This document shows, in pieces, positions 12,993 through 50,386 of a stretch of 56,688 bases of DNA. The translations under genes and the position numbers were made by a program. The first letter of the stretch is position 1; every line of letters begins with the position of its first letter. Source of the stretch: an uncultured Anaerolineae bacterium (GTDB lineage Bacteria > Chloroflexota > Anaerolineae > Aggregatilineales > J027); assembly GCA_964557285.1 (NCBI GenBank), contig CAZKZS010000002.1, positions 1 through 56,688 on the forward strand. The letters run 5' to 3'. The notes beneath the pieces are model-generated. The model saw nothing but the letters and a program-made list of their open reading frames with translations. It was not told the DNA's origin and ran no database searches.

Positions 12993-13973
12993 TCATTTTA
13001 GCTGTTGCAGCGCGGCGGCAAGGTCTTGACGGAGTTTGTCGGTGCGTGCAGGGTTCGCCTGCGGCGCGGCCGGGGTAGACGTTTCAGGGGTGCTGGCGGG
13101 GGCGTTCTGCAAAGAACGGACGGTAAGGCGCTTGGCTTCAGGAGCGCCTTCGTCCGCGAAAAAGAGGAGGTCGAAAAAGGAGTGGTTTTCGACCGGTCGG
13201 TGGCGGATGTCCTCTGGCAGCGACGCGACAAGCGTGGAGAGGGCGCTGGAGATCGCGGTTGTGAGATGCAGGTGTTCGTTGAAATCCAGCATACCGTTGG
13301 AGAGGAGGCTGCCGATGTAACCGCTGAGGGCAGAATACATTTTGGCGGCCAGGACATCGCCGAGGCGCGGTTGGGGCGTGCCGTCGGGCAGCCATTCCTT
13401 GTGGTCGGGCTGCTGCTTGGCGTCGAGGGTGGCGGTGGCCGGGTTCATGCCCCAGATGACCGGGCTGTACTCCCAGAGTCTGACAGCGCGAATATTCCGA
13501 ACCGTTCGGGGTTTGCCCTCGCGGTCGGTGATTTTGGACACATCGGCCTGCATGATTTCAAAGCCGATGGAATACTCTCGTACAAAGCCGCCCGCAATCA
13601 GGGCGAAGGTTTCCCGTCCGGCGACGGTGTCCAGGGCGAACTGAGTGTGCGTGTACAGCCCGCCGGCGGCGTCCGGGTACTCGGCCCGGATGTCCTCAGG
13701 CAGGTCGTCACGGCCAATTTCCCGGATGTCGAGCGGGCGCCCGACGACGTTCCGCACGGAGGATGTGTTGTGCTGGTCCAGCACGGTCACTCGCGCCCGC
13801 TGCCCGCGTTCGGACAGGGTTTTGGTGTACGCGCCGGGATGGATGATGTCGTCGCCGTCATCCACGATACCGAGGACGCTGACGACGGCCTCGACGGTTC
13901 CCTCGGCGTCGTTCACACGGAGGACTTTGACCGGGAAGGACTTGTAGATTTTTTCGTGGGTTTTGGTGGGCAT
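12993..13973 (-). CDS. Prohead protease, HK97 (S78) family, with C-terminal extension
   Basis: GTVEAVVSVLGIVDDGDDIIHPGAYTKTL, LDQHN..VGRP and YSIGF motifs. 326 aa. Confidence 0.85.
   Translation of the reverse strand: MPTKTHEKIYKSFPVKVLRVNDAEGTVEAVVSVLGIVDDGDDIIHPGAYTKTLSERGQRARVTVLDQHNTSSVRNVVGRPLDIREIGRDDLPEDIRAEYPDAAGGLYTHTQFALDTVAGRETFALIAGGFVREYSIGFEIMQADVSKITDREGKPRTVRNIRAVRLWEYSPVIWGMNPATATLDAKQQPDHKEWLPDGTPQPRLGDVLAAKMYSALSGYIGSLLSNGMLDFNEHLHLTTAISSALSTLVASLPEDIRHRPVENHSFFDLLFFADEGAPEAKRLTVRSLQNAPASTPETSTPAAPQANPARTDKLRQDLAAALQQLK
13497..13509. repeat. Palindrome copy CCGAACCGTTCGG (context TCCGAACCGTTCGGG)
   Basis: Exact 13-nt core, inside the protease gene. Confidence 0.9.
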
Positions 13974-13978
13974 GGCGG

Positions 13979-14386
13979 TTACACCTGAAGCTCGGAACGG
14001 ATGATTTTGACGTAGAACTCGGTCGTCGAGATGGCGTAGCCAAGCAGGGTCGACCAGTCGCCGGTGCCGAGATCCACGGGACGCATGGCGGCGCCCGCGA
14101 GGTCATCGGAGACGCAGTACCACTGCCCCTTCACCAGGCCGGAGCAGCCGGTGATCTTGCCTTCCGTGACTATCAGGCCCACCTGGTCGGCGCCGTTGCC
14201 GTTCATCAGAATCCCGACGGCCTGGGCAGCCGCCTGGCTGTTGCCCTGGGCAGCGGCCAGCTTGCCGTTGGTGTCGATGCGAACCCAGGCGCCGCAGGCG
14301 AGTGTGGCGGACAGGGTTTTGCGGTCGACTTTGGCGGCCGCATCGGGTTTGACGGTGGTGGGAAAGGTGAGGTTGCTGGCTCCCAT
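13979..14386 (-). CDS. DUF2190-like small head protein (possible decoration/cement protein)
   Basis: 135 aa, Gly/Ala-rich beta-type sequence upstream of the protease. RBS AGAGGTAATCC. Confidence 0.45.
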   Translation of the reverse strand: MGASNLTFPTTVKPDAAAKVDRKTLSATLACGAWVRIDTNGKLAAAQGNSQAAAQAVGILMNGNGADQVGLIVTEGKITGCSGLVKGQWYCVSDDLAGAAMRPVDLGTGDWSTLLGYAISTTEFYVKIIRSELQV

Positions 14387-14392
14387 GATGGA

Positions 14393-14830
14393 TTACCTCT
14401 TTCGGCGGCTGCGGCGCGGCGGATCATCGTCCCCACGCTCGTCTTCGGCGGGTTTGACAAACACCGTGTCCTCAGGAGGCGGCGCGTCGGCTTCGGTGTC
14501 CGGCTCGCCGTCTCCAACGAATACTTCGTCTGGCGCGTCGGTTGGCGGTTCCGGCTCCGGCGGCGGTGCGGGCCGCTCCCAGGACGGCGCCGCATCCGGC
14601 CCGCCGGTCAGGACGGCCAGCAGATGGAGGGTCGCATCGACAGGTGTGTACTGGGCAACGCGCCCTTCCTCGACAAAGACAAACGTCGAGGGCAGGCAGC
14701 CGTCCTTGACGATGGCATAGATGCCGTCCGTGAATGGCACGCTGGCAAGCGCGTCGCAGTAGGTGTCGTGCAGTGGGTCGGTGGCGGCAAACCCCGTTTG
14801 GCTCCCGTAAGCGAAAATGCTGTACCCCAT
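14393..14830 (-). CDS. Hypothetical protein with acidic Pro-rich C-terminal half and basic tail
   Basis: ATG at 14828-14830, RBS AAAGGGAG. It is the first gene of the head operon. Confidence 0.6.
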   Translation of the reverse strand: MGYSIFAYGSQTGFAATDPLHDTYCDALASVPFTDGIYAIVKDGCLPSTFVFVEEGRVAQYTPVDATLHLLAVLTGGPDAAPSWERPAPPPEPEPPTDAPDEVFVGDGEPDTEADAPPPEDTVFVKPAEDERGDDDPPRRSRRKR

Positions 14831-14929
14831 GTCGAACTCCCTTTCTGTGTAGATTGTATACCCATTCGTTTTTTTTGGCTATACATTTGTTCTAATCACG
14901 ACAATTTTTGGCGTATTCCCCCTTCGCTC

Positions 14930-14958
14930 TTTACACATACTACACTATAGTGTATTAT
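14930..14958 (+). promoter_or_regulatory. Promoter P1 with embedded operator TACAC-TATA-GTGTA
   Basis: -35 TTTACA (14930-35), 17-nt spacer, -10 TATTAT (14953-58). The palindrome at 14941-14954 overlaps the spacer and -10. Confidence 0.7.
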
Positions 14959-15019
14959 GATTATGACGTAGTAGGTGGCACCCCACTGCGCTTATTCAGC
15001 ACAGAAAGAAGGAGGAGAC

Positions 15020-15523: not shown

Positions 15524-15876
15524 AGGCCATTCCGAACCGTTCGGTACCGCCCATTCGTGACCTGTTCAACAAGATCGCAGACCCGGAGTGGATTCTCTGG
15601 TCACTGGTTGACGGCAAGGCGGCGGGCCGCTGCGGCAGCCTCCAGCGCCTGCTGGACGACCTCTGGCTGGTGCTGGTCTGGGTGGACCCTGATTTTGGCC
15701 TCCAGCACTGGCAGGCCGAGCGCTACCTGCGGGCCTGGCGCCGGCATTACCCAGACCAGGTGGAGGCGACACTGGAGTTGATCGAGGCGGTCATCCTGGA
15801 AACAAGCCGCCCGGATGAGATCAGCTGGTGCAGCACGATCCTTCAGCAGCGGGAAGGAGGGGCGGACGGATGGTGA
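15520..15876 (+). CDS. Hypothetical protein
   Basis: ATGA start/stop overlap at 15520. MKAIPNRSVPPIRDLF...; 118 aa. Confidence 0.55.
   Translation: MKAIPNRSVPPIRDLFNKIADPEWILWSLVDGKAAGRCGSLQRLLDDLWLVLVWVDPDFGLQHWQAERYLRAWRRHYPDQVEATLELIEAVILETSRPDEISWCSTILQQREGGADGW
15532..15544. repeat. Palindrome copy CCGAACCGTTCGG
   Basis: Exact 13-nt core at the 5' end of CDS 15520..15876. Confidence 0.9.
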
Positions 15877-16118: not shown

Positions 16119-16142
16119 GATGATGGTTGTGGGAGTGTGCGG

Positions 16143-16171: not shown

Positions 16172-16188
16172 AGCGATGAGGAGGACCG

Positions 16189-16627: not shown

Positions 16628-16672
16628 GAAAGTTAAGCAAGGTAATCCAATTTACCTGGGAGCCGAGAGGTT

Positions 16673-17532: not shown

Positions 17533-17722
17533 GGCCACCCTGTTCGGTCACGAGTGCCACTGGGACGGCGAATTGAGCGAGATGCTGGCACAGCCGGCGT
17601 CGGATTATACCCGGATCACCGAGGAACCATTCGCAGAAGACGAGGTATCCGCGCGAGCCAATGCGCTGTACGCCCGGATACAGGCCGTTTGGAAGAAACG
17701 AGCGGAGGCCAGGGATGAGTGA
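17525..17722 (+). CDS. Small hypothetical protein
   Basis: ATG at 17525 overlaps the rnhA 3' end. High third-position G+C. 65 aa. Confidence 0.5.
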
Positions 17723-18029
17723 CATCGGTCGTCGATACCGATTCGCCCGCGAGCAGGCCGGGCTGAGCATCGCGCAGACGGCGCGGTTATCTGGCCTTGA
17801 CGCGGAGGATGTCCGCGCTATCGAGGAAGGGATCATCATATACGATCCGGCGGGGCGGCTGCCGTCGATTTACGGGATTGACCCGGCCTGGCTGATTCAG
17901 GGCGCGGATTTTGAGGGCTTCGTGCTGAAAAACTTCACCCCCCTGGTGGATGCGCTGATTGCCGCCGGTCGGAAAGACCTGGCGCTTGAACTGATGGGGA
18001 TGAGCGGCACGCAGCGTCAGGAGCGGTGA
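17715..18029 (+). CDS. XRE-family helix-turn-helix protein
   Basis: RFAREQAGLSIAQTARLSGLDAEDVRAIEEG is a classic HTH_XRE pattern. 104 aa. Confidence 0.7.
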   Translation: MSDIGRRYRFAREQAGLSIAQTARLSGLDAEDVRAIEEGIIIYDPAGRLPSIYGIDPAWLIQGADFEGFVLKNFTPLVDALIAAGRKDLALELMGMSGTQRQER

Positions 18030-18497: not shown

Positions 18498-19456
18498 TGA
18501 GCAGCCACCAGCTGGCACAGGTCGGCGACCTGTATACCTGTGTGGTGTGCGGCTGGAACTGGAAGCGGATGCCGTCGGACGAGTGTCCCGGCGTCCGCCG
18601 CTACCGCTGGGACCCCTGGCCGGAGCAGCTGATGACCAAAAACCAGCTGGCGAAGGCAGGCTACCAGACGGGGCGCCGCCTGCCGCCAGTGGCCGGGGTG
18701 ATTGCCCGCGAAGACTCACCGGGCGGCTGGCTGCGGCTGTACGACCCCACTCAGGCCGTGCCAAAGCAGCCAGTGACGCCGCGCCAACAGGTCGCGCTCG
18801 CCAAAGCCCAGGCGGCGCGGAAGTGCCGGGAATGCGGCCGCACCCTGAGCCGTCGGGAGCGCCGGCTGTGCTGGACGTGTGATGCGCGGTTGGAAGCCCG
18901 CTACTGGGCGGCCTCGGTCTTGCAGCGGGGAGCCGTCATTCTGGACACGGAAACGACCGGGCTGGACAACGCCGAGATCATCGAACTGGCGGTCATTGAC
19001 GCCTACGAGCGCGTGCTGCTGAACACCCGGATTAAACCCCTCTGCCCGGAGCGGATGTATGAAGTGGGCAGCCGGGGTCTGAGCGCCTTCGACATTCACG
19101 GAATCAGCGCGGAGATGCTGGTGGATGCACCGACGTTCGCGGAGGTCTACCCGCGCCTGCGTCGCGTTGTGGAAGGCCGCCCGGTGCTGGTCTATAACCT
19201 GCGCTTCGACCGCGACCGCCTGCGGGAGGACTGCGAGCGCTGGCAGCTGCCGGCACTGGATTTTTCGGCCTGGGACTGCGCGATGGAGTGGTACGCACAG
19301 TGGATCGGTGAATGGTCGTATCGGCGTGGCTCGTTTCGCTGGCAGCCGCTGAACGGCGGGCACGATGCGCTGGGAGACTGCCTGGCATGTCTGGATCGGA
19401 TGAGGCGCATGGCGAACGCAACAATGCCGCGCACGCGAACGGGTGTGCTACAATAG
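18497..19456 (+). CDS. DEDDh 3'-5' exonuclease (DnaQ/epsilon-like) with N-terminal double Zn-ribbon region
   Basis: ILDTETTGL (ExoI), VYNLRFDRDRL (ExoII) and GGHDALGDCLA (ExoIII, H-type). N-terminal CVVCG...C and CRECG...CWTC. Confidence 0.8.
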   Translation: MSSHQLAQVGDLYTCVVCGWNWKRMPSDECPGVRRYRWDPWPEQLMTKNQLAKAGYQTGRRLPPVAGVIAREDSPGGWLRLYDPTQAVPKQPVTPRQQVALAKAQAARKCRECGRTLSRRERRLCWTCDARLEARYWAASVLQRGAVILDTETTGLDNAEIIELAVIDAYERVLLNTRIKPLCPERMYEVGSRGLSAFDIHGISAEMLVDAPTFAEVYPRLRRVVEGRPVLVYNLRFDRDRLREDCERWQLPALDFSAWDCAMEWYAQWIGEWSYRRGSFRWQPLNGGHDALGDCLACLDRMRRMANATMPRTRTGVLQ

Positions 19457-20480: not shown

Positions 20481-20544
20481 CGTCCACCTGGCCCATCTTA
20501 TTAACTTAGGCAGCACGGAGGGTGGCGGCTCCCTCCCAGGTGAT

Positions 20545-20557
20545 CCGAACGGTTCGG
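20545..20557. repeat. Palindrome copy CCGAACGGTTCGG with flank (CCCAGGTGATCCGAACGGTTCGGA)
   Basis: Exact core in the convergent intergenic gap between 20480 and the portal stop at 20560. The GGAGGG/CCCTCC hairpin lies just upstream at 20517-20537. Confidence 0.9.
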
Positions 20558-20559
20558 AC

Positions 20560-24513: not shown

Positions 24514-25454
24514 CGTTCAGCCGCTTTTGTGTTCAGGTAATGCTGGGCCAGTTTGACCAGCGCGTCGACGGGGCGATCCGGGTCGATGTCGGCGCGGGCG
24601 ATCAGGGTCTTGATCGCTTTTTGCAGCACGGCCGCGTCTTTGGCCTTGAGGTCGCTGGCACGCAGCAGCACAGGCAGCGACACCAGCGGCAGGCCGTCCT
24701 TGAGGTCGCCGTCCGCGTTGAAGACGTGTTCGGCCAGGTCGCCGGCACGGGCGAGGAAAAATTGCAGGATGAGGTGCAGGGCAACCGCTACATTTTTGAC
24801 ATCGAAGGTGGCGCGGCTGATGTCCAGCGCGTCCAGATAGCGGCCGTAGTCGGTCCATCGCGCCAGCCAGGCTTCGTTCCCCGCCACCAGCTGGGCGGCC
24901 AGGGCAAACGCTTCACGGGCGGCGTCACGTTCGTCCGGCAGAAAGACCAGGCTGACCGTCTGGAAGCCAAAGGCGGCCTCGGACAGCGGCTGGATTTTCG
25001 TCGGCTCCAGCAGAGCAATCGTTTTGTCGTCCACGCCGGAGTACACCCGGTCTTCGACCGTCGGGATGGACTCATAGAGGATTTTGAGGATGGCCGGGTC
25101 ATCCTGCCCGAAGATGCTGTTGTGGGACAGCTGGACGGCGATGCGGCGGGCCGGGTCGTGGTAGCCGAGAATGACCTGAACCTCAATGGTGGCGAGGCCG
25201 GCGTCGATGGCGGCCTGAACGCGGTGGTTGCCGCTGAGGACTTCGAGGAAGGGCTGACCGTCGTCATCCACCTGCGGGGTGCGGGTGGTGTCGTCGTGCA
25301 GTTCCCAGCAGAGTGGGGTCGAGGTCAGCACACCGTCGCGTTTGATGTTTTCAACCAGACGGCGGTACATCTCGGCCGGCATGTAGTGGGCGTTCAGGTC
25401 GAGCAGCTTGAGGGTTCGTGGGTCGACCGTGCGGGTGTGCAGTTGCAGAGTCAT
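24510..25454 (-). CDS. ParB-like nuclease domain protein
   Basis: Internal ATG at 25452-25454 with a GGAG RBS. LDLNAHYMP, DGVLTSTPL and LSGNHRVQAAIDAG form a ParB N-terminal (sulfiredoxin-fold) pattern. 314 aa. Confidence 0.65.
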   Translation of the reverse strand: MTLQLHTRTVDPRTLKLLDLNAHYMPAEMYRRLVENIKRDGVLTSTPLCWELHDDTTRTPQVDDDGQPFLEVLSGNHRVQAAIDAGLATIEVQVILGYHDPARRIAVQLSHNSIFGQDDPAILKILYESIPTVEDRVYSGVDDKTIALLEPTKIQPLSEAAFGFQTVSLVFLPDERDAAREAFALAAQLVAGNEAWLARWTDYGRYLDALDISRATFDVKNVAVALHLILQFFLARAGDLAEHVFNADGDLKDGLPLVSLPVLLRASDLKAKDAAVLQKAIKTLIARADIDPDRPVDALVKLAQHYLNTKAAER

Positions 25455-26809
25455 CGGGAGGGCTCCTGGTGTCCGTGTCTGGCTTTCCAGCGGGGCAGCG
25501 CCTCGGCGAGCGGCCACTGTCCGGCGGCGGCCTGGTAGTTGACCATCCATGCCGTGTCTGCGTCCGGCGTGCGCTTGCGTGAGTACAGCGTAAACAGCCC
25601 TCGGTATTTCATGCTGTTGGGGTTGTCCGTGAAGGCGGTCGTGAAGACGTGGCGAACCCGGTGTTTGTTCATTCGTTCCGCCAGCACCTGGGCCTCGCGG
25701 CTGAGCGCGGCGTACAGCACCAGCTTGGACAGGCGCGGGTAGTCGGTCGGCGCGACGGCGAAGTCGGACAGCAGGTAGATCGTGTCCGGGGCGCTGAAGG
25801 GGTGGGACGGGCTGCTGAAAGCGAAACATCCGACCAGCCGGCCGTCGACCAGGACGGCATAGGCTGGTCCGGCAGCACCCGGCGCGATGTGCCGGTTCAG
25901 GTACTGGGAGCGCAGTGCGTTGAACTGCGCGGGGGTGAGCGGGGCCAGGGACAGGGTATCGCCAATCGGCTGCCCTGGGGACAGGCGCGGCAGCGGCACG
26001 GCGGCCAGCGGCTGGCGGGGCTGCACCACGCCGATTTTGTGGGTCGAGGAGTACATATACACCTCCGGGGCGCGGGGTGTAGTTTTGACGACCCCCCGGA
26101 GCGCCAGGTCGGGTATCTGGAAGTTGAGCCAGAGAATCCAGTGGGCGCGGGTGGCGGCGATGTGCTGGGCCATCCGGGTGATGTCGGCCTGGTTGAGGAG
26201 AGTGTACGCGGGCTGCGGCCAGTCAAACAGGGTGTTGATTTTGGCGAACAGCCGCTCGTAGCCGCCGGCGAAAAACGGCGGAAAGGACAGGAAAGCCGCC
26301 CCGTCGGGCAGCTGGTCGATCCGATCCAGCACGTCCCCGTTGAAGTAGGAGGCCAGCGGCAGGCGCACCGTACCCAGCCGGGCGCGGGTGGTGTCGAGCA
26401 GGCCCTCCCACTGCTGGCGATAGGCGGCCAGCATCCGGCGGTGATACGGGTTGTCGCGCCCCTGTCCGGTTTGGTCCAGGTGGTCGACCATCCGCGTGAG
26501 CAGCATGACGGTGGCGACTTTGCCGTCGTCGGTGGCGAGGCCGGGCTGCATCCACGCCAGGGCGTCGGCAGCGGACGGCTTCAACTGAAAGTGGATCGGC
26601 TGCCCGGCGAAGAACTGCCCCAGGACGTAGGAGTAGACCGAGACATCGTTGCTGTGCAGGCGCATCCCTGGCGCGTACTCGTAGAGCAGCCGCTCCAGGG
26701 TGAAGTGGCCGGAACAGCCAACGTACACGTCGCTGACCTGCCCGACCCATTCGCGGACGGCGGCAGCGATCATCGATCTCACATCGGGCATAGTGGTTCC
26801 CAGAAACAT
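25451..26809 (-). CDS. Two-domain protein: Dam-like (D12-class-like) methyltransferase-fold N-terminal half with atypical FPPF motif, plus uncharacterised C-terminal domain
   Basis: ATG at 26807-26809 with an AAGGA RBS. VYVGCSGHF (motif-I-like) lies about 155 aa before LSFPPFFAGGYERLF (motif-IV-like). The C-terminal VLVDGRLVGCFAFS...IYLLSDFAV is GNAT-like. The assignment is tentative. Confidence 0.3.
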   Translation of the reverse strand: MFLGTTMPDVRSMIAAAVREWVGQVSDVYVGCSGHFTLERLLYEYAPGMRLHSNDVSVYSYVLGQFFAGQPIHFQLKPSAADALAWMQPGLATDDGKVATVMLLTRMVDHLDQTGQGRDNPYHRRMLAAYRQQWEGLLDTTRARLGTVRLPLASYFNGDVLDRIDQLPDGAAFLSFPPFFAGGYERLFAKINTLFDWPQPAYTLLNQADITRMAQHIAATRAHWILWLNFQIPDLALRGVVKTTPRAPEVYMYSSTHKIGVVQPRQPLAAVPLPRLSPGQPIGDTLSLAPLTPAQFNALRSQYLNRHIAPGAAGPAYAVLVDGRLVGCFAFSSPSHPFSAPDTIYLLSDFAVAPTDYPRLSKLVLYAALSREAQVLAERMNKHRVRHVFTTAFTDNPNSMKYRGLFTLYSRKRTPDADTAWMVNYQAAAGQWPLAEALPRWKARHGHQEPSR

Positions 26810-26834
26810 ACGGGGAGTCCTTTGGAAAGAAAAA

Positions 26835-26876
26835 GGCCCGGTCGCAGAGGTACTGAGGGGAAGGTGCGGACCGGGC
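26835..26876 (-). terminator. Hairpin terminator/attenuator after the tRNA-like gene
   Basis: Minus strand: GCCCGGTC ... GACCGGGC (8-bp stem) followed by CTTTTTCTTTCC. An A-run on the other side makes it potentially bidirectional. Confidence 0.5.
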
Positions 26877-26895
26877 AAAAAGTGAAAAATGGTTA

Positions 26896-26966
26896 AGCGG
26901 ACCCCCGGACTCGAACCGGGCAATCCGGCGCGGTACGCCGGCACAGCACCTGGCTGTCCAATCCGC
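26896..26966 (-). tRNA. tRNA-like gene, Gly-type identity with anticodon ACC (atypical)
   Basis: Hand-folded cloverleaf: acceptor GCGGATT/GGTCCGC, D arm ACAG-CCAGGTG-CTGT, anticodon arm CCGGC-GTACCGC-GCCGG, variable loop ATTG, T arm CCCGG-TTCGAGT-CCGGG, discriminator T. Atypical features are G8, G32 and A34. No encoded CCA. Confidence 0.5.
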
Positions 26967-26977
26967 GTGCTGCCTTC

Positions 26978-27007
26978 ATGGTAAATCAGAACAGGTGTTC
27001 AAGTCAA
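26978..27007 (-). promoter_or_regulatory. Promoter of the tRNA-like gene / packaging operon
   Basis: Minus strand: TTGACT (27007-27002), 18-nt spacer, TACCAT (26983-26978). The tRNA 5' end lies 12 nt downstream. Confidence 0.5.
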
Positions 27008-27016
27008 GCACGGCTT

Positions 27017-27029
27017 CCGAACCGTTCGG
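27017..27029. repeat. Palindrome copy CCGAACCGTTCGG (TTCCGAACCGTTCGGAT)
   Basis: Exact core in the divergent control region, 10 nt upstream of the minus-strand -35. Confidence 0.9.
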
Positions 27030-27073
27030 ATAACTGCGGGCGTCTTTTTCGCAAACTTTTAACATTTCCCCTC

Positions 27074-27102
27074 TTGACACAAACTACACAATAGTGTAGG
27101 AT
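27074..27102 (+). promoter_or_regulatory. Promoter P2 with operator CTACAC-AATA-GTGTAG
   Basis: -35 TTGACA (27074-79), 17-nt spacer, -10 TAGGAT (27097-102). Palindrome at 27084-27099. Followed by a TTAACAATC box and a leader hairpin at 27132-27153. Confidence 0.75.
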
Positions 27103-27180
27103 GATAATAACTTTAACAATCTTATCCACCTGCGGCGGCCAGCACACCGCCGCGTTAGCAAAGAAAGAAGGGACTTACCA

Positions 27181-27369
27181 ATGGTAGACAAAGACCTCCT
27201 CAAACTGTACGAAACGCTGAAGTCACAGGCTGACGACGACAGCACGGTCGGCTGTGAAATCTACAGCCTGTTTATCGACCTGCTCACCATCGCCGTCGCG
27301 GACGGCCAACTGGCTCCAGAGCAGCTGGCGATGGTCGAAAACACCGGAATCGACGAGATGATGAGTTAG
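27181..27369 (+). CDS. Small acidic protein
   Basis: 62 aa, rich in D/E. SD AGAAAGAAGG. It is the first gene after P2. Confidence 0.6.
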   Translation: MVDKDLLKLYETLKSQADDDSTVGCEIYSLFIDLLTIAVADGQLAPEQLAMVENTGIDEMMS

Positions 27370-28145: not shown

Positions 28146-28217
28146 GATAATACCTTAACAATCAATTTCAGCGGCGCAGACCAGCACACCCCTGCGCCCA
28201 AAAGAAAGAAGGATCCT

Positions 28218-29899: not shown

Positions 29900-30271
29900 A
29901 TGCCGCTCAAGAAACGTGATCTGGTGCGCTACCTTCCCTCCCAGCGCTTCCTGCTGCTGGAAGGCCAGCTGGGGATCGTGACCGAGGTCGCGGAAGGATT
30001 TGTCCGCGTGGCGCCCTGGAATTTCCCCCAGGGAAGCGAACTGATTGTAGAAGCGGACTGGCCTGTGTATCTGGAACGGGTCGCGGCCAGGCCAGAGCTG
30101 GAACGGCTGCTGGTCATCCTAGAGGCCATGCTGAAGCAGGCGCTGTGGATCGCCAGCGTGATGCAGCCCGCGCCGGAGTCTTTTCCGGCCTGCCAGGAGA
30201 CGCTGCTCAACGGGCTGCGGCTGCTCCAGCACCTGGCGGGTGAGATTCCGAACCCTTCGGAGGAACCCTAG
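29900..30271 (+). CDS. Hypothetical protein with SH3/KOW-like N-terminal segment and helical tail
   Basis: 123 aa. Its architecture resembles the next gene. Confidence 0.5.
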   Translation: MPLKKRDLVRYLPSQRFLLLEGQLGIVTEVAEGFVRVAPWNFPQGSELIVEADWPVYLERVAARPELERLLVILEAMLKQALWIASVMQPAPESFPACQETLLNGLRLLQHLAGEIPNPSEEP

Positions 30272-35492: not shown

Positions 35493-35502
35493 GGAGCAGC
35501 TA

Positions 35503-36179: not shown

Positions 36180-36214
36180 GAAAATTACGGGGGCGTGCGG
36201 CCCCCTCAGGTGAT

Positions 36215-36227
36215 CCGAACCATTCGG
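36215..36227. repeat. Palindrome copy with one mismatch, CCGAACCATTCGG, plus flank (CAGGTGATCCGAACCATTCGGA)
   Basis: Located in the ~200-nt leader downstream of P7. Confidence 0.75.
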
Positions 36228-36385
36228 AAGCCCGCATCAGCACAAGGCAGGTTATCCGGGTGGGGAGTGTGAGTCAGGATTCGCTCTAAAATGACGCTGC
36301 TGCCCGAAAGAGGCGGCGAGAACGGCGTTTTGACAGCCTGGCTGATCAAAATCACCTTGGGTTCGACAAAGGAGAAAATAACGCC

Positions 36386-38090: not shown

Positions 38091-39005
38091 ATGTCCCATG
38101 CACTTCACTGGCGATTCCGTGCCAAAGCGCTCCGGGAAATGCGGTTTGAAGGCCGCCTGGCGATGCTGGTCGCTCTGCTGTCGCACAGCAACCTCCGGCT
38201 GCGCTGTTGGCCGTCAATGCAAACCCTGAGCGAGGAAACAGGGTACAGAAGCGAGGCGCTGAACAAAGCCAAGAAATGGCTGCTCAGCGTCGGCGCGATG
38301 TATGTGGTCCCCTACCGATACCGGGTCGGCAAAGAGCGGGAACTGCCCCGCACACAGCACGTCTACCAGCTGACCGGCGTGATGAAAATCGGTGACCAAT
38401 GGCAGCCCTATCTCTACGTATCCCCGGAGACGGTTCGGGGGATCATTGACGAAATAAAGCAGTTTGTTGTTTTTTCGGAGATCGAAATTTCGACTATCGA
38501 AAATTCGATCAGCGAAATTTCGACCAGCGAAACAGAAGATTCTTTAAAAGAGAAAAAAGGTAGTACCAAGAAAAAAGGTAGTACCAAGAAAAAGACTTCT
38601 CCGTCTCCAGCGCCGGAGGCAGAGCGCAAGCGCAACCTGATTTTCGACGAGGTAGCCCGCCTGCTGTTCCGACTTCAGGAGACAGCCCAACTGGACAAAA
38701 GTATTGCCGGGCGGATCGGCAAAATCACCGCCGCGCTGCGGGCCGAGTACGGCGTGACCGCCCCCCACGACGCTCAACAGGCCGCGCCGGCCGTGGACGC
38801 GCTGCGGAAGTTCGCGGCCTGGTACGACCGGGAGGCGAAAGGCGCCGCCCGCCCGCGTGACCTGACCAAGTTCAAAGAATGGTGGGCCAGTTGGAAGCAG
38901 GCGAACGCGCCGGGTGCACAGGAAGAAACCCCCATCCAATCGGTGGACGGCGACGCCATTCTGCGGCGGCTGGGCATTCGCCCGGCAGGAGGAAGCACGG
39001 CATGA
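38091..39005 (+). CDS. Replication initiator-like winged-helix protein (DnaD/O-like) containing the putative origin
   Basis: ATG at 38091 after GGAGGA. CWPSMQTLSEETGYRSEALNKAKKWL HTH. Followed by the DnaC-like loader with an ATGA overlap. Confidence 0.55.
   Translation: MSHALHWRFRAKALREMRFEGRLAMLVALLSHSNLRLRCWPSMQTLSEETGYRSEALNKAKKWLLSVGAMYVVPYRYRVGKERELPRTQHVYQLTGVMKIGDQWQPYLYVSPETVRGIIDEIKQFVVFSEIEISTIENSISEISTSETEDSLKEKKGSTKKKGSTKKKTSPSPAPEAERKRNLIFDEVARLLFRLQETAQLDKSIAGRIGKITAALRAEYGVTAPHDAQQAAPAVDALRKFAAWYDREAKGAARPRDLTKFKEWWASWKQANAPGAQEETPIQSVDGDAILRRLGIRPAGGSTA
38482..38588. repeat. Iteron cluster plus A-rich direct repeats (candidate origin of replication)
   Basis: TCGAAATTTCGA (38482), TCGAAAATTCGA (38497), GCGAAATTTCGA (38512) and GCGAAAC (38528), with a 15-nt period. 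Then AAAAAAGGTAGTACCAAG x2 (38553-38588). The stretch is locally AT-rich. Confidence 0.6.
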
Positions 39006-40635: not shown

Positions 40636-40637
40636 TT

Positions 40638-40650
40638 CCGAACGGTTCGG
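40638..40650. repeat. Palindrome copy CCGAACGGTTCGG with flank (TCCGAACGGTTCGGATTACCTGGGGG)
   Basis: Exact core in the convergent gap between 40635 and 40683, next to the GGGGGC/GCCCCC hairpin. Confidence 0.9.
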
Positions 40651-40682
40651 ATTACCTGGGGGGGCAGCTTTGCCGCCCCCTG

Positions 40683-41237
40683 TCACTCTTTGGGAAGTTG
40701 CTTTTGCAGCGCTTCGATGGTGGCCTCGGCCCGGCCCAGGTCTTTCATCAGGCGCTGTATTTGTTCCTGGAGGTTCTGTTCCTGCCCTTCGGCCCGTTCC
40801 AGCTGCTGGCGGATGACCGCCAGCGTGGCACGGGTTTCGATGAGATCGTGTTCAGCCTGGCGCAGCCGCGCATTTTCCTCGTTGAGGTCGGCCACCTTGC
40901 GGTTCAGCAGGTCGATCTGGGCGGTCAGCTGGCGTTCCACATCGGCAGCCAGCATGACGGTCATTTCTTCGGGGGTTTCGGCGGGCGCCTGGCCGCGCTG
41001 ACCGCGCTCCAGCGCTTGCGCGATTTCCTCATACGTCAGCCCGGCAGCTTTTGAGGTCGCCACCAGGTCAAACACCGTCATGTCGTCGACGGTGAAAAAG
41101 CGGGTGCGGCTGCGCCCCGGATTGGCGCTTGGCGAGAGGTAGCGTTCAAAGGTTTCGGCCCAGTTGATGATCGTCTGGCGGGCCACGCCGAAGCGCCCGG
41201 AAGCCTGTTCTGTGGTGTAGCGGAGTTCGGTCGTCAT
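40683..41237 (-). CDS. MerR-type HTH protein with long C-terminal coiled coil
   Basis: YTTEQASGRFGVARQTIINWAETFERYL...RFFTVDDMTVF, then heptad-rich ~90 aa. 184 aa. Confidence 0.65.
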   Translation of the reverse strand: MTTELRYTTEQASGRFGVARQTIINWAETFERYLSPSANPGRSRTRFFTVDDMTVFDLVATSKAAGLTYEEIAQALERGQRGQAPAETPEEMTVMLAADVERQLTAQIDLLNRKVADLNEENARLRQAEHDLIETRATLAVIRQQLERAEGQEQNLQEQIQRLMKDLGRAEATIEALQKQLPKE

Positions 41238-41297
41238 AGGCCAATCTTATCCACTTTTGTCCAAGTGGCGCTACTTTGCGGCAGATGGAGAAGTGTA

Positions 41298-41402
41298 GAT
41301 CAAGATGGAACTTCATCGTGTGACTTGGATCAAGATTTACAGAGTTGTAAGTTTTAGCAAAAGCGCCTATACTGAGGGCTAAATTTTGTAAGTTCTTGTA
41401 AG
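41298..41402 (+). promoter_or_regulatory. Promoter and short direct repeats upstream of the ParM-like gene (parC-like candidate)
   Basis: GATCAAGAT x2 (41298, 41328). TTGTAAG x3 (41345, 41386, 41396). TTGTAA-17 nt-TATACT (41345-41373). Confidence 0.55.
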
Positions 41403-41411
41403 AGGTTAGCG

Positions 41412-42530
41412 ATGAGCAGTTTACAGCAGGAACACAATGCCATTCTCAGCGAGATCGAGGGGCAGGTGGTGGGTTTGAATGTGGGCAACGGCTTCGTCAA
41501 GGGGACGAACGGCGCCGCCCGGCTGCCCGTGATTCCGTCGGTGGTGTCGGTCATGAATGAGATGGTCGAGTATGAGGAAAACTACTCGCCGGACGACATC
41601 CTGATCGAGTACCAGGGGGTGCGGTATGCGGTGGGATACACCACCCACCGGCTTGGCTCGGCGGCGGTGCCGGATATGTCCGGCGAGCGGATGATGTCCA
41701 GCGACTACCTGATTTTGTTTCTGGCGGCGCTCTCCCTCCTGGACCCCGGCGACAAACGCCGGAACGGGGATTTTGTGCCGGCGCGGGTGGTGCTGGTGGC
41801 ACCCCTCTCCAGCTACAACCGCAACCGGAAGCAGATCAAAAAGTACCTGGCCGGTTCCCACCAGGTCGGCGTCATCCAGAGCGGGCGCCTCCGGCGGACC
41901 GTGACGATCCACATCAGCGAGGACATGCTGAAAATTATCCCGGAAGGCCGGGGCACGCTGGCCTCGCTGACCCTGACCGACGAGGGGCTGCCGGTGGACC
42001 CGGACGGCTACAGCACCCGCACGGTCGGGATCGTGCAGGTTGGCACCCGCACCACCGAGGGCCTGTTTTACGAGCGCTCCCTGCCGAACGACTCGCGGTC
42101 GTGGGGGCTGTCCAAAGTCGGGCTGTCAACGGCCTGGAAGCACCTTCAGGACTATGCCCGCAACCGCCACAACTTCGAGTTGGATATGTACCAGGCCGAT
42201 GAAGCCCTGAAGGCGGGCGGGTTTTACATCGGCAAAAAATGGATCGACCTGGGTGAGGAGGAGCGGAAGGACTCCTTTATCGCCAATGTGGCCCGGCAGG
42301 TTGGCAATGAACTGGCGACCCGCTGGCAGAACGGCGAGGATACCTACCATTTGCTGCTGTCGGGCGGTGGGACGGAGGATGTCTATCCCTACCTGCGCCA
42401 GCGCTTCCCACATCTCACGCGGGTCAAAGACCCGGTGTATGCCGAGGCGGTTGGCGCCTGGAAATACGGCCTCTTCTCTGTGCTGAACGAGATGGGGATT
42501 ATCAAAAGGTACGTTGATGAACAGCAATAA
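41412..42530 (+). CDS. parM: ParM/StbA-like actin-fold segregation ATPase
   Basis: GLNVGNGFVKGTNG (phosphate-1) and HLLLSGGGTEDVYPYL (adenosine/GGG motif). 372 aa. Confidence 0.7.
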   Translation: MSSLQQEHNAILSEIEGQVVGLNVGNGFVKGTNGAARLPVIPSVVSVMNEMVEYEENYSPDDILIEYQGVRYAVGYTTHRLGSAAVPDMSGERMMSSDYLILFLAALSLLDPGDKRRNGDFVPARVVLVAPLSSYNRNRKQIKKYLAGSHQVGVIQSGRLRRTVTIHISEDMLKIIPEGRGTLASLTLTDEGLPVDPDGYSTRTVGIVQVGTRTTEGLFYERSLPNDSRSWGLSKVGLSTAWKHLQDYARNRHNFELDMYQADEALKAGGFYIGKKWIDLGEEERKDSFIANVARQVGNELATRWQNGEDTYHLLLSGGGTEDVYPYLRQRFPHLTRVKDPVYAEAVGAWKYGLFSVLNEMGIIKRYVDEQQ

Positions 42531-43051: not shown

Positions 43052-43169
43052 TGCCCAGGCGCCTGCCCAGGTGGTGAGTGTGGCCGGGGTGTGGGGCTGC
43101 ATCCTGACACTGGCGGCATGGCTTGGCGCCGCCGGGCTGCTGCTGCTGGTCAAGCTGCTGTGGGGGTGA
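43035..43169 (+). CDS. Possible small single-pass membrane protein
   Basis: GTG start. The frame shows high GC3. VVSVAGVWGCILTLAAWLGAAGLLLLVKLLWG. The start is uncertain. Confidence 0.3.
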   Translation: MRLLPDAQAPAQVVSVAGVWGCILTLAAWLGAAGLLLLVKLLWG

Positions 43170-44020
43170 GTGTGGAGAAACAAAAATACCCGCACGCGGA
43201 GATGCTGGATACGGCGGCGCTGCTGGCGCATTGGCTGGCCTCAACATGCCGCCGTTTTGCGTTCGCGGGGTCGCTGCGGCGCGGGGCCGCCTGGGTCGGC
43301 GATATCGAGGTGGTGGCGGTGCCCGGCCCCGATACCCGGCCTGTGCTGGATGACCTGCTGGCGCAAGGCGTCCTCCGCAAGCGCCTGAACGTGAAGGGGA
43401 AACCCATCGGCTGGGGCGAGGAAAACCGCCACGCCGAGTTCTGGGATGGGGGGTATCAGCGCTGGGTGGCGGTTGATTTTTTTCTCACGACATATGAGCA
43501 GTGGGGCATCTATTTTGCGATCCGCACAGGGGACGCGGACGTGTCGCGGCTGCTGGTGACCAACCGGAGCGGCGGTGGACTGCTGCCGGAACCCATGATG
43601 GTCAAAGACTGGCGGCTGTGGAAGCTGCCCTACCCGCGTGTCCCTGGCGAGAATATGGTCCCGGAAGGAAGTGTCTGTCTGCTGACGCGGGAGGAGGTGG
43701 ATGTGTTCCGCTTTCTAAACCTGCCCTACATCGCCCCGTTCAAGCGATATGTGTCAGAGGTGCAGGCCATCCAGCGCTACAACTGGGGGGCACTCGTGGC
43801 GGCGTTGGACGGGCATAAAGACTGGCGGGTAAAGGAGGAGGAATATTTTTTCCGGGGTCAGCGACAGGCCCTGGCTGTGTACGTCAAAGACGCACTGCGG
43901 GGTTACGCGGCGTCCGGTGCCTGGCCGGCGGTCGGGGCGCGGCCAGGGGATACGGTGTACAGCCCGGACGGGCTGCCGTACCCGCTGCGGGCGATTCTGA
44001 ATCGACGGGAGGATGTATGA
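43166..44020 (+). CDS. Pol-beta-superfamily nucleotidyltransferase (Pol X-like palm) protein
   Basis: FAGSLRRGAAWVGDIEVV matches the GS..RRG...GD[IV][DE] NTase motif. The GTG at 43166 overlaps the upstream TGA. The first ATG is at 43202. Confidence 0.55.
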   Translation: MSVEKQKYPHAEMLDTAALLAHWLASTCRRFAFAGSLRRGAAWVGDIEVVAVPGPDTRPVLDDLLAQGVLRKRLNVKGKPIGWGEENRHAEFWDGGYQRWVAVDFFLTTYEQWGIYFAIRTGDADVSRLLVTNRSGGGLLPEPMMVKDWRLWKLPYPRVPGENMVPEGSVCLLTREEVDVFRFLNLPYIAPFKRYVSEVQAIQRYNWGALVAALDGHKDWRVKEEEYFFRGQRQALAVYVKDALRGYAASGAWPAVGARPGDTVYSPDGLPYPLRAILNRREDV

Positions 44021-45719: not shown

Positions 45720-45897
45720 TGGTTTGGCTCCCATAAGCGAAAGCGGTGAGGATGAAAGAAGGAAGCCTCACCGCTGTATTTCGCACGCCCGACGGCGGTA
45801 AACCGCCAAGCGCCAGCACAATTTCATTTTAAAGCTAAACCGCATGGGCGTCAAACCTCAAGTGGACTAGAACACAGGTTCTACGGGAGACGAGAGT

Positions 45898-45910
45898 CCG
45901 AACCGTTCGG
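45898..45910. repeat. Palindrome copy CCGAACCGTTCGG (GTCCGAACCGTTCGGAA)
   Basis: Exact core in the divergent region between the membrane-protein operon and P9. Confidence 0.9.
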
Positions 45911-45948
45911 AAATGGGTCTTTTCATGCCAAATTCTAACGCTTAACCC

Positions 45949-47480: not shown

Positions 47481-47489
47481 GAGGATGTC

Positions 47490-48075: not shown

Positions 48076-48077
48076 AG

Positions 48078-48485: not shown

Positions 48486-48505
48486 AAATTCCCCTATTTT
48501 ACTCC

Positions 48506-48534
48506 TTGACACACACTACACAACAGTGTAAGAT
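48506..48534 (+). promoter_or_regulatory. Promoter P10 with operator TACAC-AACA-GTGTA
   Basis: -35 TTGACA, 17-nt spacer, -10 TAAGAT. Palindrome at 48517-48530. TTAACAATC box and leader hairpin at 48561-48589. Confidence 0.75.
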
Positions 48535-48608
48535 GTATATACATTAACAATCGACCCCCACACGCGGCGACCAGCACACCGCCCGCGTGGAGAAGAAAGA
48601 AGGAACTC

Positions 48609-48917
48609 ATGACTGTTTTACGTGACATGTTTTTGAACCACATCGAAGGCGAGGTTCAGCCCTTTGAGGTGCTGGACACAAGCGACGACACGCGCTACGC
48701 ACTGGCGACGGAATACATCGACGACCTTGATGAGTGGGTGTGGCACATCTGCCAGGTCACCGCAGACGGCGAGTATGAGCCGGTCGAAACCCTGGTCAAC
48801 GAAGAGGCTGCCCTCGACCTCTGGACGTTGTATGCGGAGGGCGTGCAGGAAGACGAGGAAGCCGCGCAGCGCACCCTCTGGGAGGCGGTCGCGGATTTCG
48901 TGGGGTCGCTGCTGTGA
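48609..48917 (+). CDS. Highly acidic small protein
   Basis: 102 aa with many D/E. SD AGAAAGAAGG. It is the first gene after P10. Confidence 0.6.
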   Translation: MTVLRDMFLNHIEGEVQPFEVLDTSDDTRYALATEYIDDLDEWVWHICQVTADGEYEPVETLVNEEAALDLWTLYAEGVQEDEEAAQRTLWEAVADFVGSLL

Positions 48918-49105
48918 TTACCCACGAGGACTTTCCCCTCTTTTCGGTCGTGAGCCTGGTTGAGGGAGCGCAGGTCGTCGCCCAGGGCGATTACCTGGGC
49001 ACCCTCCAGGCATTTGAGGACGACGCGCCGGTGCAGCTGGCGCTGGTGCAGGTCGCGCCCGGCCGCGTCGTGGTTCATCCAGTCGAACAGGTGGTGCTGA
49101 CATGA
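48914..49105 (+). CDS. Small hypothetical protein
   Basis: The GTG start overlaps the upstream stop. 63 aa. Confidence 0.4.
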   Translation: MITHEDFPLFSVVSLVEGAQVVAQGDYLGTLQAFEDDAPVQLALVQVAPGRVVVHPVEQVVLT

Positions 49106-49479
49106 TTTTGCAGTTTACGAGTCTCAAGGAGTTCGCGGAATACACGCGCTGGTCGGGCGGATACGTCCATGTTGGCATGGACGGCTGGCTGGAAGTGCGG
49201 TCGTACCAGTCGACGCTGGCCTACATCCAGCTGAAGAACACAATACGGGCGCAGCGGGCACAGAAAGCCCTGACCCGCCAGCGATGGTACGGCAAGATGC
49301 GGAACGGCTGGGGAGAGGGCTTCCCCTGGGAGTTAAGGCGTGCCCGGTTTTTCGGGGTGCTGGCGCTGCGGCGCACCCTGCGCGACCCACGTCCCCACTT
49401 CCAGCACTGCCACGTGGACGAGCCGCTGACCCGCCTGCATGAGGGTATGGCCGCTTTCAGAAAGGAGCTTGAGGCATGA
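49102..49479 (+). CDS. Hypothetical protein, paralog pair member 1
   Basis: Shares LQLKN and ARFFGVLALRR..DPRP with the next gene. Confidence 0.55.
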   Translation: MILQFTSLKEFAEYTRWSGGYVHVGMDGWLEVRSYQSTLAYIQLKNTIRAQRAQKALTRQRWYGKMRNGWGEGFPWELRRARFFGVLALRRTLRDPRPHFQHCHVDEPLTRLHEGMAAFRKELEA

Positions 49480-49949
49480 ATAAGGAATTTGGGAGTATCA
49501 AGGCGCTGGTGGCGTATTTCGACTGGGGCTGCGGCCGCAAGGCGCGGATCACAACCAAAGATGGCCTGGTGACCGTCTTTGTCGACGGCGAGCCGAGGGC
49601 ACATCTCCAGCTGAAGAACCCGGCGCGTGGTTTTCGGCTGATGAAGGTGCTGGGCAAGCGTGCGCGGTATCTGGCGATGCGGGGTGCTGTAGAAGGCAGT
49701 GTCCCTTATTCTGCGCGTGAGTATGCGCGGGCACAGTTTTTCGGGGTGCTGGCGCTGAAACGTGACGTACCGGACCCGCGCCTGCCCTGGAGCGTCCGAC
49801 CCTCGGAAGTCCACGACAACTCGTATTCGATTTTCGACAACAGCGCCAAAAACGAGTGGGGCGAGCCGGTCTGCATTTTGGCCGGCGTGACCTACCACGA
49901 AGCGATGCAGTACCTCATGACCTACGGATGGAAAGGGTTGAAGGCATGA
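49476..49949 (+). CDS. Hypothetical protein, paralog pair member 2
   Basis: HLQLKN...AQFFGVLALKRDVPDPRLP. 157 aa. Confidence 0.55.
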   Translation: MNKEFGSIKALVAYFDWGCGRKARITTKDGLVTVFVDGEPRAHLQLKNPARGFRLMKVLGKRARYLAMRGAVEGSVPYSAREYARAQFFGVLALKRDVPDPRLPWSVRPSEVHDNSYSIFDNSAKNEWGEPVCILAGVTYHEAMQYLMTYGWKGLKA

Positions 49950-50386
49950 ACCGGGTAAATGAACCTGCGATTGACATCCTGCTGCTGGGCATTCAGCGCC
50001 GCCGCGCTGCCGGCGTAGAGCGGATTCCCGCCGGGGTGCTGGACTCGCGCCCGTTCTGCCCGCATGGCTGGGACGACCAATGCGATCAGGCGCGGAATCG
50101 CATGAACCGCGCCCGGCAGAAAATCCGCCATCACCTGGCGGCGTACCAGCGAACCCGGCTGGTGAGCGAGCGGGTGGCGGTCCGCACCTGGCGCCAGGAA
50201 CTGGCGGAAGCGGAAGCCCTGTACCACCAGTACATGGCCTTTGTGTACAACGGCTGGCACCGGCAGGACGGCGGGACGTACTTTGAGGTCGCCCGCCGCC
50301 GCTGGAAGCGCTACCTGCTCCACAGGGCCTACAAGCCGCGCAAACCGAACGGTTCGGATCACTTGGGGAGAAGGTCACCATGCTGA
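49946..50386 (+). CDS. Hypothetical protein
   Basis: ATGA overlap at 49946. 146 aa. Confidence 0.5.
   Translation: MNRVNEPAIDILLLGIQRRRAAGVERIPAGVLDSRPFCPHGWDDQCDQARNRMNRARQKIRHHLAAYQRTRLVSERVAVRTWRQELAEAEALYHQYMAFVYNGWHRQDGGTYFEVARRRWKRYLLHRAYKPRKPNGSDHLGRRSPC
50345..50357. repeat. Palindrome copy CCGAACGGTTCGG with flank (CCGAACGGTTCGGATCACTTGGGG)
   Basis: Exact core at the 3' end of 49946..50386, 23 nt upstream of the next ATG. Confidence 0.9.

Follow-up and report, generated by a model that had tools for sequence, protein, structure and literature searches.

Ten copies of a 15-bp palindrome dispersed over a 56.7-kb phage genome: predicted protein-binding sites and a candidate ParB/Noc-type binder

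The stretch of DNA considered here (the window) is contig CAZKZS010000002.1 of the assembly GCA_964557285.1, deposited under an uncultured Anaerolineae bacterium; it comprises 56,688 nucleotides and carries ten dispersed copies of a 15-bp dyad, TCCGAAC-N-GTTCGGA. The window amounts to one complete phage genome (56,684 bp), circular or circularly permuted, since a metagenome contig bridges its end and its start with a 4-nt overlap. A 100%-identical genome is present in about 60 metagenome assemblies or contigs, and all near copies are 100% identical. The collections searched held no relative closer than about 48% protein identity (homologues of the portal, the Dam-like protein and ParB reach at most 48%); megablast of the window against phages gave no match. 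According to the gene calls, which were taken from the identical metagenome contigs, the phage encodes recognisable structural proteins (portal, capsid, S78 protease, tape measure), replication and nucleic-acid proteins (an O-like initiator, a DnaC-like loader, RNase H, an exonuclease), Dam-like/GNAT, DUF488, DUF3560 and PAPS-reductase-like proteins, a ParM-like actin, and one ParB. Other helix-turn-helix (HTH) proteins encoded besides ParB are a MerR-like HTH/coiled-coil protein (40683-41237), an HTH_17 protein (35470-36075), and an XRE protein (17715-18029).

The dyad was sought with the 15-mer pattern TCCGAACNGTTCGGA at up to two mismatches; written out with an intact position 9, it reads TCCGAACCGTTCGGA. 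Ten sites were found where 0.23 are expected, and none of them has two mismatches, which leaves ten sites with at most one mismatch, about one per 5.7 kb. The 13-mer core CCGAACSGTTCGG occurs exactly at 13497, 15532, 20545, 27017, 40638, 45898, and 50345, i.e., seven times against zero in 100 shuffles. When three mismatches are allowed, only two extra sites appear, which is the chance level (2.55 expected), and the family is therefore bounded at exactly ten, with no degenerate tail. The palindrome, noticed initially in a reading made from the letters alone (the sequence-only reading), is thus real, beyond chance, and owned by the phage. That reading listed eight sites, including a single-mismatch copy at 36215, plus a degenerate relative at 30247; all of them stand, the last two both being one-mismatch copies (36214 and 30247), but a tenth copy at 5787 (TCCGAACCATTCGGA), within the tape-measure gene, was missed.

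Variation within the family follows a simple rule. The arms do not vary, and seven copies have a perfect 13-bp core; the three copies with an imperfect core (5787, 30247, and 36214) are all changed at position 9, next to the centre, while the remaining deviations sit at the outermost bases (13496, 15531, and 50344). The symmetry extends inwards to positions 7 and 9, where the complementary C7/G9 is kept in 7/10 copies.

Half of the sites (5/10) are fully intergenic, compared with 5.7% of positions (P = 1.2e-4). Two occupy convergent junctions (20544 and 40637), both without canonical terminators, two lie in gaps between back-to-back promoters (27016 and 45897), and one lies in a leader (36214). 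This agrees with the placement given earlier, except that the coding sites number five rather than three: 15531, 30247, and 50344 are 15-29 nt from gene ends, and 5787 and 13496 are deep in late genes. Only 4/8 strand-switch regions contain a copy, and the three promoter-associated sites (copies 5, 7, and 9 of Table 1) stand at non-conserved distances from the promoters.

It is probable, and we hold this with good confidence, that the dyad is a DNA site recognised by a protein. A site for a dimeric DNA-binding protein was already the proposal of the sequence-only reading, and it is the best-supported one in view of the invariant arms, the two-fold symmetry running through the centre, and the absence of compensatory changes. 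An RNA hairpin was at the same time dismissed as sterically implausible, which was overstated: with a stem of 6 bp and a loop of 3 nt, the hairpin is feasible at about -5.8 kcal/mol in both orientations. Such a hairpin, together with an adjacent GC hairpin, could mark the 3' ends or leaders of transcripts and serve in termination, processing, stability, or antitermination. In three places the dyad is indeed joined to a GC hairpin via a conserved linker, CAGGTRA; two copies begin 1 nt past a stop codon, and the order stop codon, palindrome, hairpin is also found in two of the loci inspected for comparison, L282 and L263. However, neither a compensatory nor a wobble (G-U) change occurs in the arms of the ten copies, whereas the genuine hairpins of this genome vary freely: the GC hairpins beside copies 4, 7, and 8 have the same structure and wholly different sequences, as in real RNA or terminator stems. 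Because the arms stay invariant while the neighbouring hairpins preserve structure and not sequence, the dyad appears to be read as sequence by a two-fold symmetric protein and not as an RNA fold. Recognition of duplex sequence is further favoured by positions 7 and 9, which stay complementary in seven copies though unable to pair in a hairpin. Moreover, the stem is weak, two copies are mid-gene, and no U-tract follows the motif, although canonical terminators with U-tracts do exist elsewhere in the genome; no Rfam family passes the gathering threshold, and in 26800-27200 a search at E up to 1 is also empty. The dyad thus has none of the marks of an intrinsic terminator or a structured RNA (covariation, U-tract, Rfam match), and a role at the RNA level is quite unlikely. 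The ten copies, the hairpins adjoining three of them, and the gene of the candidate binder are listed in Table 1.

Table 1. Copies of the dyad, adjoining GC hairpins, and the candidate binder (window coordinates)
Feature	Position	Strand	Sequence or composition	Context
Copy 1	5787..5801		TCCGAACCATTCGGA, 1 mismatch at position 9	deep in tape-measure gene (5335-8427, minus)
Copy 2	13496..13510		TCCGAACCGTTCGGG	within prohead protease S78 gene (12993-13973, minus)
Copy 3	15531..15545		TCCGAACCGTTCGGT	begins 11 nt into a 118-aa gene, where two plus-strand genes overlap at ATGA (stop/start)
Copy 4	20544..20558		perfect	convergent junction, 1 nt from portal gene stop codon
GC hairpin and linker at copy 4	20517..20543		GGAGGG-N8-CCCTCC, then CAGGTGA	linker abuts copy 4; T-run follows on neither strand
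Copy 5	27016..27030		perfect	between back-to-back promoters; 8 nt upstream of leftward -35 (27007), 43 nt upstream of rightward -35 (27074)
Copy 6	30247..30261		TCCGAACCCTTCGGA, 1 mismatch at position 9	overlaps last nine codons of a 123-aa gene; ends 10 nt before ATG 30272
Copy 7	36214..36228		TCCGAACCATTCGGA, 1 mismatch at position 9	leader between promoter P36141 and gene at 36386, ~30 nt past predicted start
GC hairpin and linker at copy 7	36189..36213		GGGGGC-N5-GCCCCC, then TCAGGTGA	linker abuts copy 7; minus strand scores terminator-like
Copy 8	40637..40651		perfect	convergent junction, 1 nt past stop codon of a 147-aa gene
Linker and hairpin at copy 8	40652..40680		TTACCTG and 9-bp GC hairpin	with copy 8 fill the 47-bp gap up to the MerR-like gene stop codon
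Copy 9	45897..45911		perfect	between back-to-back promoters; 42 nt from leftward -35 (45854), 37 nt from rightward -35 (45949)
Copy 10	50344..50358		ACCGAACGGTTCGGA, then TCACTTGGGG	in last 43 nt of a 146-aa gene, 21 nt before next ATG (50380)
Candidate binder, ParB/Noc-type, 320 aa	34014..34976	+	ParB_N CTPase with GERRTRA and ENRGRRNLNPIEEA, HTH_ParB, helical C-terminal domain	

As to the protein that binds the ten dyads as its private docking sites, the single, partner-less ParB/Noc-type CTPase is named here tentatively as the most likely candidate, short of an even chance. It matches Myxococcus ParB, Noc, and Spo0J at E of about 1e-23 (Noc about 5e-23) and carries the motifs GERR and ENxxR...NPIEEA; its AlphaFold model reaches a pLDDT of 90, and Foldseek returns ParB, Noc, and KorB, the latter ranked below chromosomal ParB and Noc. 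The deviant-Walker ParA motif KGGxGK[S/T] is absent from the six-frame translation, the only P-loop in the called genes being that of the DnaC-like protein, and ParB_N begins at about residue 7, leaving no N-terminal extension. Neither the ParA partner nor the N-terminal ParA-stimulating peptide of a ParABS system is thus in evidence, and no canonical parS occurs in the window even with three mismatches. At the four positions that set specificity in ParB and Noc, parS binders have R-T-A-G and binders of the Noc-binding site (NBS) have Q-K-K-R (PMC7383237); the window protein has E-R-K-G and is neither type. Across 26 aligned family members, the CTPase motifs do not change, whereas the recognition helix does. 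The genome has only two repeated compact palindromes, the dyad and TACAC-N4-GTGTA (see below). A ParB of this kind requires a place at which to nucleate, and among the candidates in the genome the dyad alone is unassigned. The 15-bp dyad is a compact palindrome, as are sites of the parS, NBS, and OB type, and a ParB-CTPase of the cognate type with an HTH is encoded on the same replicon. The suggestion that the sites are parS-like loading sites for ParB is therefore plausible (a single CTPase-HTH ParB, no ParA, no canonical parS), but the contigs of its A1-type relatives generally lack arrays. Two ParB-like proteins had been counted in the sequence-only reading; one was found. The supposed second, a 284-aa protein (43166-44020, +), was rejected, being weakly similar to DNA polymerase beta/lambda in the palm and thumb (E about 0.01-0.1) and thus perhaps a nucleotidyltransferase of the Pol X kind; its gene sits between the ParM module and the gene of a DUF3102 protein.

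By analogy with KorB on OB sites of RK2 and Noc on NBS, a ParB dimer would nucleate on each dyad, close as a CTP clamp on the DNA, and slide over the flanking kilobases; one site per about 5.7 kb would then suffice to cover the whole 56.7-kb chromosome. With half of the sites parked in a few intergenic gaps at operon boundaries, protein bound or stalled there could also influence transcription. We infer that ParB, rather than another regulator, binds the dyads and may spread from them, and any purpose assigned to such a coating is conjectural.

Several known systems bear comparison, the nearest being the repeats of Cluster O mycobacteriophages, KorB with OB, and Noc with NBS. RK2 has about a dozen OB sites, scattered at varying distances from promoters. 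Like the candidate, KorB is a ParB-family CTPase with an HTH, and its operator is an odd-length uninterrupted palindrome, TTTAGC-G/C-GCTAAA (13 bp with a central G/C), from distal copies of which KorB slides (PMC11790492). KorB is partnered by IncC, a ParA, and has KorA and TrbA as clamp-lockers, none of which was recognised in the window, and the half-sites are unrelated. Noc is an orphan ParB paralogue without ParA, which uses many dispersed palindromes as nucleation sites and depends on CTP for spreading (PMC7383237, PMC8429893). Its NBS, ATTTCCCGGGAAAT, is even-length whereas the dyad is odd-length, and the window ParB has neither Q-K-K-R nor an N-terminal extension comparable to the membrane helix of Noc, which is a cellular protein with a role in cell division. 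In the plasmid-prophage N15, the centromere sites IR1-IR4 are dispersed at separate places in the genome. These four are palindromic sites of SopB, a member of the ParB family (PMC7205306). N15 differs in having SopA (ParA-type), a proven partition role, and four sites, as opposed to ten in the window, which has no ParA motif and a separate ParM-like system with iteron-like repeats.

A close likeness is offered by the Cluster O mycobacteriophages (Corndog), where 34 copies of TGTTCGG-NNN-CCGAACA are spread over 69.8 kb, compared with 10 over 56.7 kb here; a dimeric protein was proposed to bind them, with the ParB-like gp90 among the candidates, their function being unknown (PMC4351075). Like the dyad, these repeats are dispersed, with invariant arms and a variable centre, intergenic as well as coding, and mostly off promoters; they are absent from the host genomes checked, and the phage has a ParB-like protein without ParA or an integrase. 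The hexamers GTTCGG and CCGAAC are common to both families, but in Corndog they are everted with a 3-bp A/T spacer and in the window inverted with a 1-bp spacer. The phages are otherwise unrelated. Corndog 25000-69777 contains 29 of its own repeats and no CCGAAC-N-GTTCGG, and no everted copy with a spacer of 0-7 occurs in the window. Alignment of the two ParB-like proteins is confined to the N-terminal domain (E = 2e-5), and tblastn of the window proteins, called by G+C at third codon positions (GC3), against Corndog 25000-69777 gave otherwise no credible match; a homologous binder was accordingly rejected. The shared hexamers may be an unexplained coincidence.

Precedents for a ParB with private sites come from other phage contigs, in which ParB genes are paired with dispersed palindromes. 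The TCCGAAC dyad itself is absent from L001-L007, L120-L122, and the 80 IMG/VR loci with relatives of the window ParB (30-50% identity). A palindrome TATTTCC-YR-GGAAATA (TG/CA centre) is present in L282, L283, and L305, contigs that carry A1-type ParB, and 12/14 of its bases are those of the Noc NBS. L282 has four copies in 20.8 kb, 1.3-5.6 kb apart, and L340 has three, 7.0 and 6.1 kb apart; the copies often lie 1-8 nt past a stop codon, with a GC hairpin or a terminator behind them, the same syntax as at copies 4 and 8 of the window. The contigs with palindromes (L282, L283, L305/L340/L431, L437, L444, L355, and L414) have 53-65% G+C, those likened to the window having 53-59%, and are 35-57 kb long where the length is reported; most of them hold at least two copies a few kb apart, the short L437 stretch holding one. 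In three lineages, one copy of the palindrome is 19-50 nt upstream of a ParB gene. The window resembles these arrays in having a private palindrome every few kb; theirs is even-length and nearly the Noc NBS, unlike that of the window, and a second, Noc-like ParB gene with a site directly upstream is present there and absent from the window. To our knowledge, NBS-like palindromes beside Noc-like ParB genes have not been described in phages. Phage ParBs with dispersed private palindromes therefore exist, while the link from them to the subfamily of the window ParB is inferential.

The same survey and the window itself also supply what weighs against ParB as the binder. The half-site TCCGAAC resembles no known consensus, being unlike TGTTTCAC, TATTTCCC, and TTTAGC. 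No copy of the motif is found at the promoter of the ParB gene, the nearest ones being 3.8 kb upstream and 1.2 kb downstream, while in the Noc-like precedent a site always precedes the ParB gene. Among the ParB loci, 6/80 have a palindrome of their own of at least 14 bp repeated more than 500 nt apart, compared with 2/112 and 1/120 in the controls, a weak enrichment. In the L305 lineage, the palindrome is likely to be bound by another ParB, which is 495 aa long and has the Noc-like residues Q..R..R (in the one sequence inspected, L305); its homologues at 38-48% identity (L437 and L444) also have an upstream site. Furthermore, L273 has nearly the same HTH as L282 (A1-type), yet lacks the L282 motif. 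The gaps between neighbouring sites of the window, 2.0-7.7 kb plus one of 12.1 kb, do speak in favour, being more even than random (coefficient of variation 0.46, P = 0.011 when treated as a circle), but the test was post hoc. The ParB, being kept next to the DUF488, DUF3560, and Dam-like/GNAT genes, may act in DNA modification without dispersed sites. Finally, several other HTH proteins are encoded.

The last point introduces a serious rival, which we nevertheless regard as rather unlikely on balance: the dyad might be the operator of another phage regulator (the MerR-like protein, the HTH_17 protein, the XRE protein, or an unrecognised small protein) acting as a global repressor, activator, or roadblock at operon boundaries. 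Three sites are associated with promoters: back-to-back promoters flank copies 5 and 9, and copy 7 is at about +30 in a leader. Two others are at convergent junctions lacking canonical terminators; the MerR-like gene ends with its stop codon 31 nt away from copy 8, and copy 7 follows the terminator of the HTH_17 operon. The repressors of Cluster A phages do bind many dispersed sites (PMC9283540), the stoperators, which are largely intergenic, are bound by one phage protein, and affect transcription elongation (PMC9283540, PMC6550527). Stoperators, however, are asymmetric, oriented with transcription, and bound by a monomeric repressor, whereas the dyad is symmetric, and its flank is found at 4/10 copies only and in both orientations. 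In addition, 7/10 sites are away from any predicted promoter, with two deep in late structural genes, and the distances from the motif to the -35 elements differ (leftward 8 vs. 42 nt; rightward 43 vs. 37 nt). Uninterrupted palindromes of 13-15 bp are typical of ParB/KorB more than of CI/Cro or MerR. An autoregulated binder encoded downstream of copy 7 (a 168-aa protein) was considered and dropped, as it has an N-terminal hydrophobic segment (a signal or membrane anchor, judged by eye) and its single-sequence model is unusable (pLDDT 45).

A further point against such an operator is that the conserved early promoters already hold a dyad of their own. Nine near-identical promoters of sigma-70 type (TTKACA, 17 nt, TAnnAT; + strand, about 55 nt each) are found at 14920, 27064, 28107, 31136, 33943, 36141, 36920, 45939, and 48496, and TACAC-N4-GTGTA sits in the spacer of all nine, like a classical operator; it is probably the operator of the main repressor of the phage, which would make it a second family of regulatory repeats apart from the 15-bp dyad. 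Three of the nine promoters share a leader of about 45 nt with a GC hairpin, GCGGCGG...CCGCCGC (27110-27154, 28152-28196, and 48542-48586), and seven early genes share a ribosome-binding stretch, AAGAAAGAAGG (27161, 27412, 27717, 28202, 28778, 45996, and 48593). Just downstream of the leftward promoter at copy 5, in the intergenic stretch before the Dam-like gene, ARAGORN calls a tRNA-Gly with the unusual anticodon ACC (26896-26966, minus strand), which is probably spurious, since a search of Rfam at E up to 1 gives no tRNA at this place.

Boxes of the form GAAC-N4-GTTC adjoin copies 5 and 9, at 26989-27000 (AGAACAGGTGTTCA, in the spacer of the leftward promoter) and 45870-45881 (AGAACACAGGTTCT); the genome has 4 in total vs. 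0.84 expected. They resemble the LexA box of Gram-positive bacteria and Chloroflexi, a hint of SOS control and of the host, and suggest input from a host regulator at these two places. The question arises whether the dyad itself is a site of a host factor exploited by the phage (a regulator or a nucleoid protein) or a host element of the repetitive extragenic palindromic (REP) type. The only hint of the host is a 1.5-kb contig binned as Chloroflexota. Scans for the 15-mer covered one genome per species for 185,579 species (at least 120 stretches) and IMG/VR (exact matches, 112 stretches). None of the matches listed from either collection is multi-copy; they are single copies in scattered taxa, as chance predicts, and the REP-type element that would have undone the phage-specific interpretation was not seen. 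A scan of metagenome contigs for the composite motif gave two matches, unrelated and low-GC, and a literature search for the 13-mer found nothing, the 7-mers matching only a small interfering RNA (siRNA) control. A host factor or host element is very unlikely to account for the dyads.

Nor are the dyads likely to be the centromere of the ParM/ParR-like pair, another role suggested initially. The direct repeats TTGTAAG(TT) (three copies) and GATCAAGAT (two copies), which are iteron-like, lie at 41297-41403, just upstream of the ParM-like gene (41412-42530), and are probably the parC of a ParMR-type system, in which the 122-aa open reading frame (ORF) downstream would be ParR; no copy of the dyad occurs in the region upstream of parM.

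Four copies of the dyad have in common an asymmetric flank. It was noticed already in the sequence-only reading and is real at these four, but its form is T[CT]AC[CT]TG[GA]GG, copy 36214 reading TCACCTGA. The flank occurs in both orientations, and three of its four copies carry the GC hairpin, with the conserved linker between; judged by their sequence, the copies with flank and hairpin read as a putative duplicated intergenic cassette. A connection of the flank GGATCACCT (which is like the 16S rRNA 3' end or a Shine-Dalgarno complement) with translation starts was dropped because no start codon follows at 3/4 sites. Cassette duplication would suit the view that the dyads are relics or agents of recombination, either boundary sequences or a mini mobile cassette (dyad, linker, and GC hairpin), and repeat-repeat recombination did cause some indels in Cluster O phages (PMC4351075); alternatively, they could be targets of DNA-modification enzymes, given that Dam-like/GNAT, DUF488, DUF3560, and PAPS-reductase-like proteins are encoded. 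However, six copies lack any shared flank, the proteins scanned include no recognised transposase or site-specific recombinase, and the only structural variant seen is not bounded by a copy of the motif, while ten 15-bp targets would leave nearly all the DNA unmodified. Of all the alternatives, this one is the least probable. The variant in question is a 5.9-kb insertion at 19434 (window 19424-19434), present in some otherwise identical copies (L123, L126, and L128); it encodes a ResIII/RE_endonuc protein, two small ORFs, and an N6_N4 methyltransferase, alters the C-terminus of the exonuclease, and looks like a type III-like restriction-modification (R-M) cassette.

The genes that surround the ParB suggest another connection between the candidate binder and DNA modification. 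ParB, DUF3560, DUF488, and Dam-like/GNAT (in order of position rather than of name, 25451-26809, 32348-33295, 34014-34976, and 35058-35492) co-travel in distant relatives (about 47% identity; L120-L122), where ParB and Dam-like/GNAT are usually divergent; the set resembles a conserved functional unit that may serve DNA modification or anti-restriction. Phage ParB proteins have been found to activate DNA-modifying dioxygenases, those ParBs being without an obvious DNA-binding domain (PMC13229309, 2026), which is relevant here because the window ParB is syntenic with the DUF488, DUF3560, and Dam-like/GNAT genes in distant relatives. It is conceivable, though decidedly unlikely, that the orphan ParB-CTPase loads from the ten or so evenly spaced private sites onto the entire chromosome and thereby tags the DNA as phage, not for segregation but in order to address or activate the Dam-like/GNAT-DUF488-DUF3560 set, or to shield and insulate the genome while infection proceeds. 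If true, ParB would provide an addressing system across the genome that serves DNA modification or anti-defence.

Some further features of the genome touch neither the dyads nor ParB. The tape-measure gene contains a 135-bp (45-codon) unit in 3.7 tandem copies at 6115-6616, with degenerate copies extending over 5821-6703. The gene of the O-like initiator (38091-39005) contains tandem repeats of 15 bp (3.3 copies, 38483-38532) and 18 bp (2.4 copies, 38551-38593), a predicted lambda-style origin, and is followed by the gene of the DnaC/IstB-like loader. A 433-aa ORF (52035-53336, +) is situated downstream of a strong terminator in the only low-GC stretch of the window (51% G+C over 52001-54000 vs. 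59-67% elsewhere); with a GC3 of 0.54 vs. about 0.8 and no match in Pfam or PHROG, it has the look of a recent acquisition.

Mobile replicons with dispersed dyad sites are known as a kind, and phage cases have been noted before, the repeats of Cluster O having stayed unexplained since 2015. The window provides a small, clean case: ten sharp sites, one ParB, no ParA found, and a separate second operator family. A wider pattern is outlined by the Noc-like palindromes which recur every few kb beside Noc-like ParB genes in other phage contigs. If the ParB of the window does bind the dyads, the principle of KorB and Noc, in which scattered private sites load a CTP clamp, would hold for virulent-looking phages as well, and orphan phage ParB genes would gain a testable role, perhaps tied to the DNA-modification genes that accompany them.

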